Below, in pieces: positions 2,695-7,620 of a stretch of 7,620 bases of DNA (position 1 is the stretch's first letter; every line of letters starts with the position of its first letter). A program made the translations under genes and the position numbers. Source of the DNA: Patescibacteria group bacterium (GTDB lineage Bacteria; Patescibacteriota; Patescibacteriia; UBA2591; UBA6264); the NCBI GenBank assembly GCA_028713575.1, contig JAQTOB010000003.1, forward strand, positions 73,026-80,645, read 5' to 3'. The notes below the pieces were generated by a model. It saw nothing but the letters and a program-made list of their open reading frames with translations, ran no database searches and was not told the origin of the DNA.

Positions 2695-3255
2695 ATGGCA
2701 AAAGTTTTTATTATCTCCGGGCTGTCGGGCTCAGGGAAAGACAGCGTTATTGACGGTTTAAAGCAGGCGGGGTTGGATTATCATCGTATTATTACCACTA
2801 CGACCCGACCAATCCGACCAGGAGAATCACAGGGCAATCCATATTATTTTATTTCGGAACAGGAATTTAAAAAAATGATTTCACAAAATGAATTTTTTGA
2901 ATGGGCCGTAGTGTATGATAATTATTATGGTAATAGAATAAAAACCGTAGAAGAGGCCTTAATTGGAAATAGGCCGATTATTTTCCGAATTGACGCACAA
3001 GGAGCAAGGACAGTCAGAAAAAAAATTTCTGATTCAATAGTTATTTTTTTAACGGCCGAATCGCTGGAAAAGATAAAAGAACGGTTGGCAAAAAGAAACC
3101 AGGATTCGCCGGAAGTAATTGAGAAACGCTTAGCCGAAGCAGAACAGGAAATGGAAAACCTGAATCAATGGGATTATGTTGTTATTAATAGACAAGGGAA
3201 ATTAAAAGAAACAATTAATCAAGTAAAAGAAATAATAGAAAAGAATTTTAATTAA
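2695..3255 (+). CDS. gmk: Guanylate kinase
   Basis: 186-aa ORF with P-loop GLSGSGKDS and the GMP-binding signature TTTRPIRPGESQGNPYYF. It starts 4 nt after the upstream stop. Confidence 0.9.
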   Translation: MAKVFIISGLSGSGKDSVIDGLKQAGLDYHRIITTTTRPIRPGESQGNPYYFISEQEFKKMISQNEFFEWAVVYDNYYGNRIKTVEEALIGNRPIIFRIDAQGARTVRKKISDSIVIFLTAESLEKIKERLAKRNQDSPEVIEKRLAEAEQEMENLNQWDYVVINRQGKLKETINQVKEIIEKNFN

Positions 3256-3683: not shown

Positions 3684-3767
3684 GCCCAGGTGGCGTAATT
3701 TGGTAAACGCAATAGACTGAGGCTCTATGCTCGTCAGAGCGTGCGGGTTCAAGTCCCGCCCTGGGCA
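3684..3767 (+). tRNA. tRNA-Leu (anticodon GAG), class II long variable arm, no encoded CCA
   Basis: Acceptor GCCCAGG/CCTGGGC; 3-bp D stem GCG/CGC with a 12-nt loop; anticodon arm ATAGA-CTGAGGC-TCTAT (anticodon GAG, G37). Variable arm GCTC-GTCA-GAGC-GT; T arm GCGGG-TTCAAGT-CCCGC. Discriminator A3767 is followed by TCC, not CCA. Confidence 0.92.
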
Positions 3768-3847
3768 TCCTCCTACGTTAAAACTTCGGAGGACGAGAAT
3801 ACCTAAATCCATCCTCGCCTCGCCCTCCGTAGCCTTGGCGAAGGAGG
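3768..3847. mobile_element. 80-bp insert between the two copies of the tRNA-Leu 3' end; imperfect terminal inverted repeats
   Basis: The ends CCTCCTACG (3769-3777) and CGAAGGAGG (3839-3847) are inverted repeats matching at 8 of 9 positions. Internal hairpins are TCCTCC(3768-3773)/GGAGGA(3788-3793) and CCCTCC(3823-3828)/GGAGGG(3843-3848). The insert has no coding capacity. Calling it a mobile remnant is inference. Confidence 0.3.
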
Positions 3848-3873
3848 GGGTTCAAGTCCCGCCCTGGGCACCA
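3846..3873 (+). pseudogene. Orphan tRNA-Leu 3' fragment (T arm + acceptor 3' strand + CCA)
   Basis: GGGTTCAAGTCCCGCCCTGGGCA (3848-3870) is identical to 3745-3767 of the intact tRNA-Leu. Here the T stem has a G.G mismatch (GGGGG/CCCGC). No matching 5' acceptor strand (G[CT][CT][CT][AG]GG) exists at a tRNA-compatible distance upstream in 3768-3847; the closest string, GCCTTGG at 3832-3838, is 1 off and too close. It is followed by CCA at 3871-3873. Confidence 0.75.
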
Positions 3874-4087: not shown

Positions 4088-4253
4088 GGTAGCTTGTTTA
4101 TTCTTGAGCTGTTTTTTTTGGACGCCCTTGTATAATTTTATAAAACTAATAAACTGGAGATAGTTAAGTAATTATGATAAATAATCATATCCTGAGTTCG
4201 TATAATATACAAGAAGACATAGACATTGCTCATATAATTCGCATAATAACGAG

Positions 4254-4283
4254 TTGTGACGAAATAATGAAAGGTTTTAGAAT
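4254..4283 (+). promoter_or_regulatory. Candidate sigma70-type promoter for the lipoprotein gene
   Basis: TTGTGA (4254-4259), 18-nt spacer, TAGAAT (4278-4283), about 50 nt upstream of the ATG at 4336. AT-rich background makes chance matches likely. Confidence 0.25.
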
Positions 4284-4298
4284 TTCTTTCAGAAATTC
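4280..4298. promoter_or_regulatory. 8-bp perfect palindrome/hairpin overlapping the candidate -10
   Basis: GAATTTCT (4280-4287), loop TTC, AGAAATTC (4291-4298). It could be an operator or a 5'-UTR hairpin. Confidence 0.3.
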
Positions 4299-4335
4299 CA
4301 TTTGGGACAATTTTTAATTTTTTAACCATAAAATC

Positions 4336-5094
4336 ATGAAAACTTCAAAAACAATTATTTTTTTTTCACTAATAACAATAACGATATTTCTTACTGGATG
4401 TTCCCAGGAAAAAAATAATGTTGTTAATCTGCAAAAAACAACAGACAATACTTCGCAGACAGGAGAAGCTACTACTAATCAAGAAAAAATTACTAGAATT
4501 AACAACACAGAGAGTGTTCATGAAGAAAAAGACGAAATAGAAGAATTATCTAAAAAATATGATAATTGGAATGTTGTTGAAAATCGAGAACATGGTTTTA
4601 TATTTAAGTTTCCAAAAGAATGGGTGGGGTTGTATGAAGGACCATATATACCAGAAGATTTTGATGTTAATGCATATAATCATTTTCTTCTTTCTCTAAA
4701 AAACAGAATAAATAAAAGTTGTTTAAATATACGCGTAGATGTAAATCCTTGGCCATTTAAGAAAGACGGCACTCAAGAAAAGGATTATTGCAATCCATCC
4801 CAAACAGAAATATTTGAAAAATGCATTGATAAAATTATTGGCTTCAAAGGTGATACATATTTTGGGGAAATAATTTCAGATTATAGTATTCAAATTCCTT
4901 TTAAAAATAGAATCATTGAATCAAAAAGGAAGGGGAATGGTTCATATTACTATAAACATGCTTTTGTTAATGTAAACAATAGAGTATTAAGTTTTACTCT
5001 TGTTGGTGATTCGCAAGCTCAAGATGATAGTGAATGTCAAAATTTTATTAAAACTATGGATGTTATAGTTGAATCAGTATCAACTCAAAATTAA
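4336..5094 (+). CDS. Lipoprotein of unknown function
   Basis: 252-aa ORF with a signal peptide, MKTSKTIIFFSLITITIFLTGC, and lipobox L-T-G-C at Cys22. A low-complexity T/N/Q/E linker follows, then a globular region with several Cys. I recognise no family motif. Confidence 0.75.
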   Translation: MKTSKTIIFFSLITITIFLTGCSQEKNNVVNLQKTTDNTSQTGEATTNQEKITRINNTESVHEEKDEIEELSKKYDNWNVVENREHGFIFKFPKEWVGLYEGPYIPEDFDVNAYNHFLLSLKNRINKSCLNIRVDVNPWPFKKDGTQEKDYCNPSQTEIFEKCIDKIIGFKGDTYFGEIISDYSIQIPFKNRIIESKRKGNGSYYYKHAFVNVNNRVLSFTLVGDSQAQDDSECQNFIKTMDVIVESVSTQN

Positions 5095-5148
5095 AAATTG
5101 TCCCGAATGATTTTACTATCGCAAAATAAAAACTTTTCATCGCATCGC

Positions 5149-5238
5149 ATAACACGGCATATACGGCTTCGCTCCTGCTAATCGCTCCACCCATATTGCT
5201 CTGCAATATCGTATATGCTGAAACGTTATCGGAAATTT
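5149..5238 (+). repeat. Structured repeat element, copy A (attC-like hairpin or unnamed cis-RNA)
   Basis: Outer pair ATAAC (5149-5153) / GTTAT (5225-5229). Internal loop AC versus GAAAC. 10-bp stem GGCATATACG (5156-5165) / CGTATATGCT (5210-5219). Inner hairpin ATATTGC-TCT-GCAATAT (5193-5209). Conserved tail GAAATT (5232-5237). Homologous to 7091-7184. Confidence 0.8.
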
Positions 5239-5267
5239 ATTTTTGTTTTATCTAATAAACACCTAAT

Positions 5268-5699
5268 ATGAATAAATCTTTTTCTCTTTTTCTTGAACAA
5301 CTGAGAAAATTTAATCTACCGGAGGGTAAATTCGCTATTTTCGGGAGCGGCCCTCTTGGCATAAGAAATATTAGAGATACCCACGATCTTGACCTTATAG
5401 TAGATGAATCGCTTTTTGACGAATACAAAACTATGCCAGGTTGGGAGCTTAAAAGCTTTAATAGAGATGGTCGTTATATTGAGATGATCGAAAATAGCGG
5501 AATTGAATTCTATAAAACCTGGGGTCCCGGGGACTGGAACACTAGTCAACTAATTGACAATGCAGAGATTATTGATGATTTACCCTTTGTGAGATTGGAG
5601 GAAGTAAAAAGGTGGAAAGAAATATCTAAAAGAGAAAAAGATTTAGAAGACATTCAATTAATTGACGAGTATTTTAAAGATTATCCTTCTAAATTTTAG
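5268..5699 (+). CDS. Minimal nucleotidyltransferase-fold protein (pol-beta superfamily, MNT/KNTase-like)
   Basis: 143-aa ORF. FAIFGSGPLGIRNIRDTHDLDLIV fits the hG[GS]-x(9-13)-DhDh NTase signature. The C-terminal helical part ends in KREKDLEDIQLI. Substrate unknown. Confidence 0.6.
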   Translation: MNKSFSLFLEQLRKFNLPEGKFAIFGSGPLGIRNIRDTHDLDLIVDESLFDEYKTMPGWELKSFNRDGRYIEMIENSGIEFYKTWGPGDWNTSQLIDNAEIIDDLPFVRLEEVKRWKEISKREKDLEDIQLIDEYFKDYPSKF

Positions 5700-5740
5700 A
5701 AATACTATTATAATTCAAAGGGAAGTTTCCGAAATTTTCC

Positions 5741-5765
5741 ACATACCAAAACGTTACACGCAATC
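5741..5765 (+). repeat. Possible solo half-copy of the 3' arm of the structured repeat
   Basis: CCAAAACGTTACACGCAATC (5746-5765) matches CCGAAACGTTATACGAAATT of copy B (7164-7183) at 16 of 20 positions, preceded by ACATA versus GATATG. No complementary 5' arm was found upstream. Confidence 0.3.
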
Positions 5766-5892
5766 ACAAAAAATATTTTTTAACAGGCCAGGGACTAATA
5801 TTTTTAATAAGGTAAAAAGTAGTCAAAATAGTTCTAAATTTGGAAAATCGTTCCGAAACGCTTTGTTGATGAGGGTATTGGGGCGGCAGTTT

Positions 5893-5937
5893 AGGGGGAC
5901 AGTCCCCACTTAAAAAGGGGGACAGTCCCCACTTAAA
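5893..5937. repeat. Tandem 22-nt direct repeat, each unit carrying a 13-bp palindrome (operator-like)
   Basis: AGGGGGACAGTCCCCACTTAAA occurs at 5893-5914 and 5916-5937, a 23-bp period. Each unit contains GGGGAC-A-GTCCCC (5895-5907 and 5918-5930). The repeat ends 8 nt before the -35 of the Fic promoter. Confidence 0.8.
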
Positions 5938-5945
5938 TTAAAAAT

Positions 5946-5973
5946 TTGACCTATTCTCTTAATATGGTATACT
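5946..5973 (+). promoter_or_regulatory. Near-consensus sigma70-type promoter with extended -10 for the Fic gene
   Basis: TTGACC (5946-5951), 16-nt spacer, TGgTATACT (5965-5973). The predicted start near 5980 gives a ~28-nt leader before the ATG at 6008. Confidence 0.6.
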
Positions 5974-6000
5974 ATAGATAATTAACTAAACCATATTAAG
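5958..6000. promoter_or_regulatory. 10-bp perfect inverted repeat bracketing the -10 and the leader of the Fic gene
   Basis: CTTAATATGG (5958-5967) and CCATATTAAG (5991-6000) are separated by 23 nt. The left arm overlaps the spacer and TG of the extended -10. The right arm ends 7 nt before the ATG. Confidence 0.6.
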
Positions 6001-6007
6001 TGTTTTT

Positions 6008-6961
6008 ATGACTTATTTATCTCCTATAGTAAAAAAACGTTTGGAAGAAAAACTTACCAAACTTAATAAACTTCGACCATTACCGAAGTCCGCGATACAA
6101 AAATTACGAGAGAAATTTCAAATAGAAATGACCTATAATTCAAACGCCATTGAAGGTAACTCTTTGACCCTAAAAGAGACTTTTTTGGTTATCAACGAGG
6201 GCATAACGGTCAAAGGAAAACCTTTAAAAGATCACTTGGAAGCGAAAGATCACTATGCCGCGCTGGAATATCTATATGACCTGATAGATAAGAACAAAAA
6301 ACATACCATCTCTGAAATGCTTATACAAAATTTGCATCAAATTATTATTCAGGAAACTGATAAAAAGTGGGCTGGACGATACAGAAATGCCAATGTTATT
6401 ATAGGCGGAGCAAAACACACGCCACCAGATGCATTACAGGTGCCACAAAAAATGATAAATTTAATCAGTTGGCTTAAGACACAGAAAAATAAAATAAATA
6501 TTATTGAACTTTCTGCTCTACTACATCATAAATTGGTTCATATTCACCCATTTTTTGACGGCAATGGCAGAACCGCGCGTTTAACAATGAATTTACTGCT
6601 CATGCAAACAGGCTATCCCCTTGTCATTATTTTGAAAAACGATCGTAAAAAATATTATGATGTGTTGGGAAAAGCAGATAGTGGAAAATACGAACCCCTG
6701 GTAAAATTTATCGCCCAATCCGTAGAGCGTTCACTTGATATTTATCTGAAAACCTTAACGCCAGCAACGATAAAACAAGAAAAATTTATTTCACTGACTG
6801 AAATATCTAAAACCACATCTTTCTCTGCAAAATATTTAAATCTACTGGCAAGGCAAGGAAAATTGGAAGCATATAAAGAAGGCAGAAATTGGTTGACTTC
6901 AAGAGAAGCGGTTGAGCGATATCTGAAAAATAGAACTCGACAAAGAAAAAAAGGGAAATAA
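6008..6961 (+). CDS. Class II Fic-domain protein (AMPylase-type) with N-terminal inhibitory motif and C-terminal excisionase/MerR-like HTH
   Basis: 317-aa ORF with the canonical Fic motif HPFFDGNGRTARL. The N-terminal SNAIEG matches the auto-inhibitory [ST]xxxE[GN] motif placed as in class II Fic proteins. The C-terminal ISLTEISKTTSFSAKYLNLLARQGKLEAYKEGRNWLTSREAVERYL resembles HTH_17/excisionase-type DNA-binding domains. Confidence 0.9.
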   Translation: MTYLSPIVKKRLEEKLTKLNKLRPLPKSAIQKLREKFQIEMTYNSNAIEGNSLTLKETFLVINEGITVKGKPLKDHLEAKDHYAALEYLYDLIDKNKKHTISEMLIQNLHQIIIQETDKKWAGRYRNANVIIGGAKHTPPDALQVPQKMINLISWLKTQKNKINIIELSALLHHKLVHIHPFFDGNGRTARLTMNLLLMQTGYPLVIILKNDRKKYYDVLGKADSGKYEPLVKFIAQSVERSLDIYLKTLTPATIKQEKFISLTEISKTTSFSAKYLNLLARQGKLEAYKEGRNWLTSREAVERYLKNRTRQRKKGK

Positions 6962-6969
6962 ATCAGAGC

Positions 6970-7016
6970 CTTGGCTCCAGGGCATTTATCCCCGGCTTCC
7001 CTGCCCCCACGCCAAG
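6970..7016 (+). other. C-rich bipartite hairpin immediately after the Fic stop codon
   Basis: CTTGGC (6970-6975) pairs with GCCAAG (7011-7016), and CAGGG (6978-6982) pairs with CCCTG (6999-7003). No U-tract follows, so it is not a canonical terminator. It is a GC-rich island in an AT-rich context. Confidence 0.35.
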
Positions 7017-7090
7017 ACAAAAATAAAATTTGTTCATTATAGAAAAGCGGTCTCGCTGAGGAGAGACAAAAAAGAAAGGAATACATCAGC

Positions 7091-7184
7091 TAACACGGCA
7101 TATCTGGTTCGTACTTTTCTCCGAAAAATGCTTTCCCAAATTGCTATCGCAACTTCAGATATGCCGAAACGTTATACGAAATTG
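7091..7184 (+). repeat. Structured repeat element, copy B
   Basis: Outer pair TAAC (7091-7094) / GTTA (7171-7174). Internal loop AC versus GAAAC. 10-bp stem GGCATATCTG (7097-7106) / CAGATATGCC (7156-7165). Inner hairpin AAATTGC-TATC-GCAACTT (7138-7155, one A.C mismatch). Tail GAAATT (7178-7183). Confidence 0.8.
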
Positions 7185-7205
7185 TTCTAATTTTTTACCC
7201 AATTT

Positions 7206-7620
7206 ATGAATGATATTTTTTTAGTTTTCGGGTACGGGATACCCAAGAACATTCTGAAAGACGAAAATTATAATTTTTATTTAAAAATGGTCTTTAATAA
7301 GATTTATGATTTTGTCGTAAAAAACAAAATTGTTAAACCGATAATCATTACTTGTGGCGGCGAAACGGATATGTTAAAGCCATACAAACGTACTGAAGCT
7401 GCTGAGATGATAAAATTGTTTAGTGCCTTTATTAAAGAACGACCATTTTTAAATCCAATAACCAAAAATTGGCTTTTCATTCCTGAAAATAAATCTCTTT
7501 CAACTTTGGAAAATTTATTAAACAGCAATAAGATAATTCAAAAGCAAAAAATTAAAAAGGCCAGTTTTTTCATCTTCTGCGAGCAAACATGTGAGAAGCG
7601 AATCAAAATTCTTGCCAAAA
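7206..7620 (+). CDS. DUF218 / YdcF-SanA-ElyC-like protein, 3'-truncated by the window edge
   Basis: The ORF is open from ATG 7206 to the window end (138 codons, checked by hand). An in-frame stop at 7188-7190 lies upstream, and the ORF is absent from the track because it has no stop. Motifs TCGGETD...RTEAAEM and ENKSLSTLEN fit the DUF218 pattern (GG...EA..M, E..S.[NS]T.EN). Confidence 0.6.
   Translation, partial: MNDIFLVFGYGIPKNILKDENYNFYLKMVFNKIYDFVVKNKIVKPIIITCGGETDMLKPYKRTEAAEMIKLFSAFIKERPFLNPITKNWLFIPENKSLSTLENLLNSNKIIQKQKIKKASFFIFCEQTCEKRIKILAK

Follow-up and report, generated by a model that had tools for sequence, protein, structure and literature searches.

A probable integron-like cassette array without an integrase gene in a Patescibacteria genome

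A 7,620-nt stretch of DNA from a Patescibacteria group bacterium (GenBank assembly GCA_028713575.1, contig JAQTOB010000003.1, positions 73,026–80,645; hereafter the window) contains two copies, A and B, of a long hairpin-like element lying between genes, and this raises the question of what these elements are. An earlier inspection of the nucleotides (hereafter the sequence-only reading) took the region from position 4336 onward for an integron-type cassette array with attC-like sites, with a cis-regulatory RNA shared by unrelated genes as the alternative. We find that the window from 4194 to 7620, continuing to at least approximately position 12000 of locus L001 (21 kb of a 517-kb JGI metagenome contig, to part of which the window is 99.8% identical), is very probably, at a rough probability of 0.85, an integrase-less cassette array of an integron-like site-specific recombination system. 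The array thus begins somewhat earlier than was proposed, with an attI-like site at its head (table 1). Co-orientation of the cassettes, complementarity of cassette ends, breakpoints at GTTA, and a divergent recombinase gene with an attI-like site in related loci all support the interpretation as a cassette array. The system is an integron-like variant and not a classical integron, several canonical features of attC sites and of the integron integrase IntI being absent.

Distribution and arrangement of the elements

Elements A and B are present where the sequence-only reading placed them and are homologous to each other, sharing the sequence TAACACGGCATAT ... ATATGCYGAAACGTTAT-nn-GAAATT. In the 21-kb locus L001, the 3' block ATATGCYGAAACGTTAT occurs three times against an expectation of 0.17 (none of 100 shuffles reached three), and the 5' block TAACACGGCATAT likewise occurs three times against 0.23 expected. 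The third occurrence belongs to a full copy, C, at L001 11882–11992, approximately 260 nt beyond the end of the window and directly 3' of the stop codon of the DUF218-like open reading frame (ORF); the interiors of B and C are identical. A profile search of L001 found no element copies outside the array. One further stretch at L001 ~13017–13125 looks by eye like a plausible decayed site, is undetected by the profile, and is not claimed here. The stems of A and B covary (ACG/CGT versus CTG/CAG), and this covariation holds in 75 homologues. The order of the ORFs and their placement on one strand are as previously described, and the distance from GTT to the next ATG, earlier given as approximately 30–40 nt, is 43 nt for one element and 35 nt for the other.

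A possible degenerate half-site had also been noted between A and B. Aligned to the element profile, positions 5734–5765 match profile positions 79–110 only, that is, the 3' third, and the match by itself has an e value of 1.4. However, the half-site and the approximately 150 nt that follow it recur after copy C (81.9% identity over 171 nt), and we therefore consider it a real decayed copy. By direct reading, its up-arm remnant is AAGTTTCCGA where AAATTTCCGA would be expected from the start of the second cassette, and it retains TTCCACATA, a remnant of the CCACCCATAT box found in the centre of element A.

To survey the element family, we scanned one genome for each of 185,579 species with the pattern AACACGGC-N45-75-GCYGAAACGTTA. 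The scan returned 109 stretches, of which approximately 75 are true homologues with a complementary stem and the flanking motifs ACATC and GAAAT. Most of these homologues come from metagenome-assembled genomes (MAGs) belonging to the CPR (candidate phyla radiation, Patescibacteria) and represent many classes, namely Uhr-, Falkow-, Moran-, Peregrini-, Peri-, Gottesman-, Yanofsky-, Vogel-, Komeili-, Kerfeld-, Magasanik-, Buchanan-, Dojka-, Sacchari-, Gracili-, and Berkelbacteria. The others are in two DPANN-labelled MAGs and in MAGs labelled Gammaproteobacteria, Bdellovibrionales, Nitrospinae, and other groups, among which mis-binned short contigs are possible. A scan of a metagenome collection that does not include the source contig gave 40 loci, and a pattern scan of viral contigs gave no matches.

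A profile search of all fetched loci (numbered L001 and upward) yielded 230 matches in 114 loci. Seventy loci carry two to six copies, which are all co-oriented; the sole locus scored as mixed, L099, has a single palindromic copy that was matched on both strands. The median spacing between copies is 1037 bp, the longest ORF between two copies has the same orientation as the copies in 103 of 108 intervals, and the genes flanking the elements are unrelated to each other. Thus, the suggested check for more copies at ORF-sized spacing was answered both by copy C and by homologous arrays in other genomes. The elements could in principle be selfish intergenic repeats of the type of repetitive extragenic palindromes or miniature inverted-repeat transposable elements, or hotspots of homologous recombination that involve no dedicated site-specific recombinase. 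They are indeed palindromic and highly conserved across genomes, and the identical interiors of B and C could reflect gene conversion. The arrangement nevertheless makes this explanation very unlikely: copies are never mixed in orientation, they are confined to arrays (with none outside the array in L001), and they lack target-site duplications. The arm sequences described below also disagree with it, being the pattern of a reciprocal crossover within a 20-nt block beside a recombinase gene, with a site's own arms never complementary.

Two further features of the family were observed. Six loci (L063, L084, L085, L097, L101, and L110) carry a second class of up arm in which a GC-rich CTCGGGTC / CCGAGC motif takes the place of ACATC (e.g., ACGCTCGGGTCGCACAAC), which suggests site sub-families with different arm sequences. 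In addition, some sites together with the 3' modules that precede them are 97–100% identical between MAGs labelled as different phyla or even domains, including L091 (Nanoarchaeota), L031 (Pacearchaeota), L060 and L092 ("Gammaproteobacteria"), L018, and L026. Such identity reflects either very recent transfer of cassettes across lineages or mis-binned CPR contigs.

Site anatomy, cassette boundaries, and predicted fold

The sites are approximately 100–170 nt long and are composed of an 18-nt up arm ending in AAC, one A, an 11-bp stem, a variable branched centre, AAAC, and GTTA; a cassette usually consists of one co-oriented ORF followed by such a site. The stem (the L stem, formed by the inner L boxes of an attC site) is nearly invariant (CGGCATATCTG / CAGATATGCCG). 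AAC and GTTA are invariant in 75 copies, both having been demanded by the search pattern itself; the pattern fixed AACACGGC and GCYGAAACGTTA, and the conservation of the adjacent stem positions and of the loop box is independent of it. Across many CPR classes, ACGGCATAT...ATATGCCGAAACGTTA and CCACCCAWAT are near-invariant, whereas attC sites are expected to be unconserved in sequence outside their R boxes. The full R-box consensus RYYYAAC/GTTRRRY is followed loosely. The sequence-only reading, which had counted this weak fit against an integron interpretation, was correct about the consensus; the R arms nevertheless pair over approximately 18 nt, across cassette ends.

This pairing is evident from the variable nucleotides before AAC and after GTTA, which are of complementary types across the population but not within one copy. 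Instead, complementarity in arrays runs between neighbours: the 18 nt that begin with the GTT of site n correspond, as their reverse complement, to the 18 nt that close with the AAC of site n+1. At least 9 of the 11 variable positions of down arm n and up arm n+1 match in 21 of 42 adjacent pairs, whereas the proportion is 2.1% among random pairs and none of 97 sites reaches this level with its own two arms. All 18 positions match in one pair in L005, and L084 has three consecutive matches. In L049 the relation is reciprocal, the up arm of each site matching the down arm of the other, as would be expected if one circle had inserted into a complete site. Because the two ends of a cassette are mutually complementary, an excised circular cassette would carry one complete long hairpin. 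Conservation that continues past GTT (GAAAT), earlier raised as an objection, is simply the start of the 18-nt R arm that pairs with the cassette's own 3' ACATC...AAC; the 15 or so nt that follow GTT are already part of the next cassette.

Comparison between genomes places the cassette boundary in the same region. Identity of 95% or more over the 60 nt that precede GTT is shown by 377 inter-locus pairs; in 335 of them the first difference falls at positions 5–7 counted from the G, and in the one informative pair of the converse kind the sequences diverge 17 nt upstream of the G. Since similarity breaks 5–7 nt after or 17 nt before the G, the crossover would lie within the invariant ...GCCGAAACGTTA block. 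Cassettes with similar 3' ends have similar cores, so the core moves with the upstream cassette; movement of the core with the down arm was rejected because the same cassette start is found behind different cores (L001 copy C, L047, and L094).

We reconstituted the sites of circular cassettes, in each case placing the cassette's own TT start after its up arm, core, and G, and folded the products with DNA parameters. For 27 of the 28 reconstituted sites, greater stability is predicted for the bottom strand (mean −28.1 kcal/mol, against −23.7 kcal/mol for the top strand), and the reconstituted sites are predicted to be more stable than the same sites in array context in 21 of 28 cases. In the predicted bottom-strand fold, the 20-bp R stem contains one T.T mismatch and is followed by a TTT bulge and the 11-bp L stem, and the tip is variable and branched. 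In canonical attC sites, the central spacer is unpaired, two to three bases of the R''-L'' arm are extrahelical, and the terminal structure varies (PMC2727003). Here, the terminal structure is likewise variable, the spacer takes the form of a 1x4 loop or of a TTT bulge located on the R'-L' arm, and extrahelical bases on the R''-L'' arm are absent: the L stem is fully paired in most copies, and the one extra base seen in a minority is again on the R'-L' side. Covariation within the L stem is seen at pair 27/112 (CG 59, AU 8, GC 5) and pair 28/111 (UA 49, CG 22). Arm mismatches that form G.T on the bottom strand only number 29, compared with three for the top strand. The G.T pair of copy A that works on the top strand, previously seen as an argument against an integron-type site, is a rare exception found in 2 of 75 copies; family-wide, the bottom strand has the better predicted fold.

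These results also bear on the alternative that the elements are cis-regulatory or otherwise functional RNAs (a 5' leader, riboswitch, or terminator) common to unrelated accessory genes. Top-strand RNA is predicted to fold better than shuffled sequences (z = −3.1 and −4.0 for the two elements), each element lies 35–43 nt upstream of the next ORF, and the G.U pair of copy A works on the top strand only, all of which would suit an RNA. On the other hand, Rfam, which includes no attC family, gave no match on the elements in the window (e values up to 10) or in the 21-kb locus (gathering scores), and the genes that would share the RNA are unrelated. The arms pair across cassettes rather than in a transcript-local hairpin, there is an abrupt loss of similarity between genomes at GTTA, both wobble asymmetry and predicted stability point to the bottom strand, and the family is tightly linked to a recombinase and an attI-like site. 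We therefore regard a regulatory RNA as extremely unlikely.

The linked recombinase and the relation to known integrons

Clustering of the ORFs in all loci revealed one dominant family, a tyrosine recombinase of approximately 270 aa, which is encoded upstream of the array and divergently from it in 21 of the 22 loci that encode it. In 10 related loci, a conserved attI-like site lies approximately 70–130 nt from the recombinase start codon and consists of two TTCGYATAAY-type boxes followed by ...AACGA|GTT; in eight loci, the arm after this GTT can pair with 16 of the 18 positions of the first cassette's up arm. The recombinase matches the Pfam models Phage_integrase and SAM_4, and its catalytic residues R, K, HxxR, H, and Y (RKHRHY) are invariant. 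The Pacearchaeota MAG locus L031 also encodes the short recombinase. Two earlier objections, that only two full copies and no tyrosine recombinase were visible, are thus answered, as more copies and the recombinase exist outside the window.

What defines integrons is an integrase whose unique extra domain is held to be necessary for recombining folded attC sites. The best PDB matches of the array-linked recombinases are tied between VchIntIA (2a3v, E = 1.3e-63) and Pyrococcus XerA (4a8e, E = 2.1e-63), and the alignment to VchIntIA is split in two, with approximately 9–12 residues facing residues ~185–240 of IntI4, the IntI-specific domain; the additional domain around patch III is therefore absent. 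Consistent with this, the integron-integrase model TIGR02249 matches in two stretches with scores of 208–220 at a cut-off of 265. The top NCBIfam model is XerA_Arch, named "site-specific tyrosine recombinase/integron integrase", and one of the three proteins tested reaches its cut-off. No long IntI was found in any locus examined. Because the recombinase lacks the IntI-specific domain, the L box is near-invariant, the R arms extend over approximately 18 bp, and the unpaired bases lie on the opposite arm, the system does not qualify as a canonical integron.

The linkage likewise makes it unlikely that the array is an ordinary integron remnant, that is, a cluster of attC sites lacking an integron integrase (CALIN) with standard attC sites, a canonical IntI elsewhere, and incidental short recombinases of the Xer type. 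This explanation would account for the invariant AAC and GTT, for the G after AAC on the bottom strand as in most attC sites (PMC2727003), for an overall architecture that matches integrons, and for VchIntIA being the best single PDB match, and CALINs accompanied by few detectable IntI genes have also been described from archaea (PMC9668308). However, the adjoining recombinase is of the short type and occupies the integron-typical divergent position in all but one of the loci that encode it, the conserved attI-like site with an arm matching the first cassette ties this short recombinase to the array, and the loci hold no long IntI. In addition, the sites have an L box that is near-invariant across phyla, no extrahelical bases in the L stem, and their unpaired bases on the R'-L' arm. 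The array resembles CALINs in its serial cassette sites with no integrase in the window or approximately 10 kb on either side but differs from them in opening with an intact attI-like site and in having non-canonical sites.

Among the closest known systems are sedentary chromosomal integrons such as the superintegron of Vibrio cholerae (VchIntIA, attIA, and attC sites of the type of the V. cholerae repeats or VCRs). Both systems have a divergent recombinase gene with an attachment site between gene and array (in related loci here), co-oriented cassettes that mostly contain a single ORF, long imperfect hairpins with 5' ...AAC and 3' GTT..., a cassette boundary at or near G|TT, similarity of sites within a lineage, and a variable branched centre, as well as a bottom strand predicted to fold better and toxin or defence cassettes with their own promoter (Fic/SoFic here). 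The present system differs in its recombinase (approximately 270 aa, with nothing opposite IntI4 ~185–240), in R arms of approximately 18–20 bp with a conserved mismatch instead of 7 bp, in an L box that is near-invariant across phyla with most copies free of an extrahelical L-stem base, in an unpaired spacer formed by a one-sided TTT bulge on the R'-L' arm, and in its hosts, which are CPR bacteria and DPANN-labelled MAGs. Archaeal integrons include arrays in ultra-small lineages such as Nanoarchaeota, with many attC clusters and few detectable IntI genes (Ghaly et al. 2022, PMC9668308). They resemble the present arrays in their ultra-small hosts and in near-identical sites across domains but differ in that their integrases carry the IntI-specific domain (PMC9668308), and the conserved motif of the present family is absent from three supplementary files of that study. 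Although the recombinase scores as well against archaeal XerA (4a8e) as against IntI, the sites are unlike those of XerA and XerCD-dif systems: XerCD acts on a double-stranded dif of 28 bp and on alternately oriented pdif sites, whereas the sites here are long hairpins that bound cassettes in co-oriented arrays.

The anatomy, the population-level signatures of cassettes, and the recombinase linkage are shown by the sequences; single-strand folding, the exact point of cleavage, and current activity are inferred. By analogy with integrons, we propose that the ~270-aa recombinase binds the folded strand of a cassette site and that the invariant ...GCCGAAAC-GTTA block would contain the point of strand exchange, for which G|TT is the simplest assumption. 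Cassettes could then be inserted at the double-stranded attI-like site beside the recombinase gene or moved between cassette sites. Because no recombinase gene is found within approximately 10 kb on either side of the array in the window, any activity of that array would need a recombinase encoded elsewhere in the genome.

Several observations weigh against this interpretation. Half of the adjacent pairs (21 of 42) score low in the arm comparison, probably because intervening sites were missed or have decayed and because loci were cut into 8-kb blocks. The folding energies are predictions only, and recombination by this recombinase family is so far a proposal. In the source locus, neither the gene list nor tblastn revealed a recombinase gene or remnant within approximately 10 kb on either side of the array; five array-linked integrases were used as tblastn queries against all loci and gave no match in L001, where a tRNA-Ala gene and a terminator-like hairpin lie at the position expected for the recombinase. 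One site of the window array has decayed, and the start of its third cassette, GTTACACGCAATC, lacks complementarity to site B's up arm. Finally, the window, L001, the near-identical NCBI MAG contig L002, and L133/L134 are 99.8–100% identical across the array, and these four near-identical assemblies are without cassette-level variation. The presence/absence polymorphism for which a comparison of relatives had been suggested is thus lacking among them, and there is consequently no direct sign of recent activity at the locus. The window array, in which one site is internally deleted and the Fic unit is probably a fusion, looks partly decayed.

Whether the system constitutes an undescribed integron lineage that is widespread in CPR, apparently shared with DPANN archaea, and built on a recombinase without the IntI-specific domain acting on long-armed conserved hairpins is, in our estimation, close to an even bet. 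In the literature searched, no paper links integrons or attC sites to arrays in CPR/Patescibacteria; unpublished or unsearched surveys may list such arrays as CALINs. A full integron-type architecture with a recombinase that lacks the extra domain, and with a different pattern of unpaired bases, bears on the minimal needs of hairpin-site recombination and on the origin of the integron system. If such a lineage exists, it would represent either a surviving link between Xer/dif recombination and classical integrons or a streamlined branch of independent standing. It would provide the reduced, host-dependent CPR bacteria, and possibly DPANN archaea, with a dedicated gene-capture system, and a cassette pool common to ultra-small symbionts would explain the near-identical sites and 3' modules across phylum labels. 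This pool includes Fic/SoFic-type genes, which are defence candidates listed by PADLOC. Annotation pipelines that demand an IntI signature would under-report these elements or give them only as CALINs.

The window array and its surroundings

The window array (table 1) keeps its attI-like site and three intact cassette sites, two in the window and the third just beyond its end. The attI-like site is near-identical to that of L035 in the box adjoining GTT, and by direct reading its right arm matches the reverse complement of the up arm of site A (GTTATGCGATGCGATGAA) at approximately 13 of 18 positions with one indel. A promoter-like pair of hexamers at 4220–4247 is directed into the array; the promoter scan overall was not above chance.

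Table 1. Features of the cassette array in the window (positions in nt from the start of the window; cassette boundaries are putative)
Feature	Position	Strand	Description
attI-like site, array head	4194–4271	+	aligns with sites near the integrase start codon in 10 related loci
attI-like site, direct-repeat-like boxes	4197–4212; 4238–4252	+	TTCGTATAATATACAA; TTCGCATAATAACGA
attI-like site, GTT and arm	4253–4255; 4253–4271	+	arm GTTGTGACGAAATAATGAA
Cassette 1	4254–5225	+	predicted lipoprotein ORF 4336–5094 and site A
attC-like site A	5136–5242	+	nhmmer E = 3e-22, alignment, covariation, fold
Site A, up arm	5136–5153	+	ends in AAC 5151–5153
Site A, L stem	5155–5165 / 5210–5220	+	variable centre with CCACCCATAT
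Site A, GTT and down arm	5225–5227; to 5242	+	preceded by GAAAC
Cassette 2	5226–5753	+	143-aa ORF 5268–5699 and decayed site
Decayed attC-like site (former half-site)	5723–5770	+	L stem deleted; GTT 5753–5755 within CCAAAACGTTA
Cassette 3, possibly composite	5754–7171	+	Fic/SoFic-like ORF 6008–6961, ending with site B
Cassette 3, leader	5753–5912	+	~160 nt, non-coding
Cassette 3, tandem palindrome	about 5895–5935	+	GGGGACAGTCCCCACTTAAA x2
Cassette 3, own promoter	5946–5973	+	TTGACC-16-TATACT
Cassette 3, conserved 3' two-hairpin module	6962–7076	+	directly before site B
attC-like site B	7077–7188	+	nhmmer E = 3e-23
Site B, up arm	7077–7094	+	AGGAATACATCAGCTAAC; AAC 7092–7094
Site B, L stem	7096–7106 / 7156–7166	+
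Site B, AAAC, GTT, and down arm	7167–7170; 7171–7173; 7171–7188	+	down arm GTTATACGAAATTGTTCT
Cassette 4, cut by window end	7172–7620	+	DUF218-like ORF from 7206; own site C at L001 11882–11992

The putative boundaries of cassette 1 were set by two GTT triplets, one in the attI-like site and the other in element A. Its lipoprotein ORF is tightly flanked by a 23-nt inverted repeat (4299–4321 / 5087–5109, 96% complementary), one arm of which ends 15 nt before the ATG while the other overlaps the stop codon; if transcribed, the repeat would pair the 5' and 3' ends of the mRNA. The ORF of cassette 2 had been labelled a nucleotidyltransferase (NTase), a label that finds no support in Pfam, NCBIfam, or PDB and for which a GS...DLD motif was the sole basis. 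In cassette 3, the Fic label was confirmed (Pfam E = 2e-23; PADLOC SoFic E = 1e-36), and because of the mismatch between its start and the up arm of site B, two cassettes have probably fused to form this unit. Other genomes also contain the up arm of site B and the cassette start that matches it, GTTAGCTGAAATATTCCT. For cassette 4, the DUF218 label is weak (E = 2e-4, below the Pfam cut-off). This cassette starts with GTTATACGAAATTGTTCT, its closing up arm has the reverse complement GTTGTGCGATGTTGTTCT, and its start TTATACGAAATTGTTCT is complementary to the up arm of copy C, AGAACAACATCGCACAAC. Its reconstituted site has a predicted folding energy of −24.8 kcal/mol for the bottom strand and −18.6 kcal/mol for the top strand (DNA parameters; shuffle z = −7.2).

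The non-coding leader of approximately 160 nt that opens the Fic cassette also opens a cassette with a 268-aa ORF (L001 11975–12130). The two leader copies are approximately 80–82% identical, BLAST matches to them were found only in this population, and the copy in the window ends in the tandem palindrome just upstream of the Fic promoter. The Fic gene and its promoter region recur in an Uhrbacteria MAG (L042 1355–2367, 82.6% identical to window 5939–6951), where the gene lies between two sites of the same family with different cassette boundaries.

The module of approximately 115 nt that immediately precedes the up arm of site B comprises AATAAGGAG and two hairpins with an A-rich linker between them; the first hairpin is long and has the conserved loop CATTCACCCC..CCCCTCTG, and the second covaries. 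This module is also found behind unrelated ORFs upstream of many sites (L005, L020, L042, L050, L056, L060, L063, L073, L083, L091, L092, L094, L104, and L113). On the minus strand, T-rich tails follow both hairpins and give the module a terminator-like look. A hairpin similar to that of the module is present at L002 70–125.

Upstream of the array, the last 23 nt of a tRNA-Leu(GAG) gene (3745–3767) are repeated exactly at 3848–3870 after an 80-nt spacer that resembles a tRNA variable arm and T arm (window 3684–3870). In the NCBI MAG contig (L002 1–340), the sequence upstream of this repeat point is different and includes a 32-nt insertion. Situated approximately 380 nt upstream of the attI-like site, the repeat may represent a scar of the att type or a point of rearrangement. 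A tandem repeat located between a tRNA gene and a tRNA-Val gene contributes one unit to the window, namely its first 154 nt; in L001 (3181–4173) this repeat has approximately six full or partial copies, at 3181, 3308, 3476, 3682, 3831, and 4020, and a 28-nt piece of it is also present in inverted orientation at L001 14990. Approximately 5.5 kb separate the array from a 16S rRNA gene upstream of it (L001 1205–2722). A tRNA-Val gene (L001 13508–13579) and frameshifted ORFs resembling helix-turn-helix (HTH) transposases (L001 13632–14305) mark the far boundary of the accessory region, and a group I intron (L001 14447–14665, minus strand), also downstream of the array, is apparently situated within a tRNA gene (L001 14400–14690).

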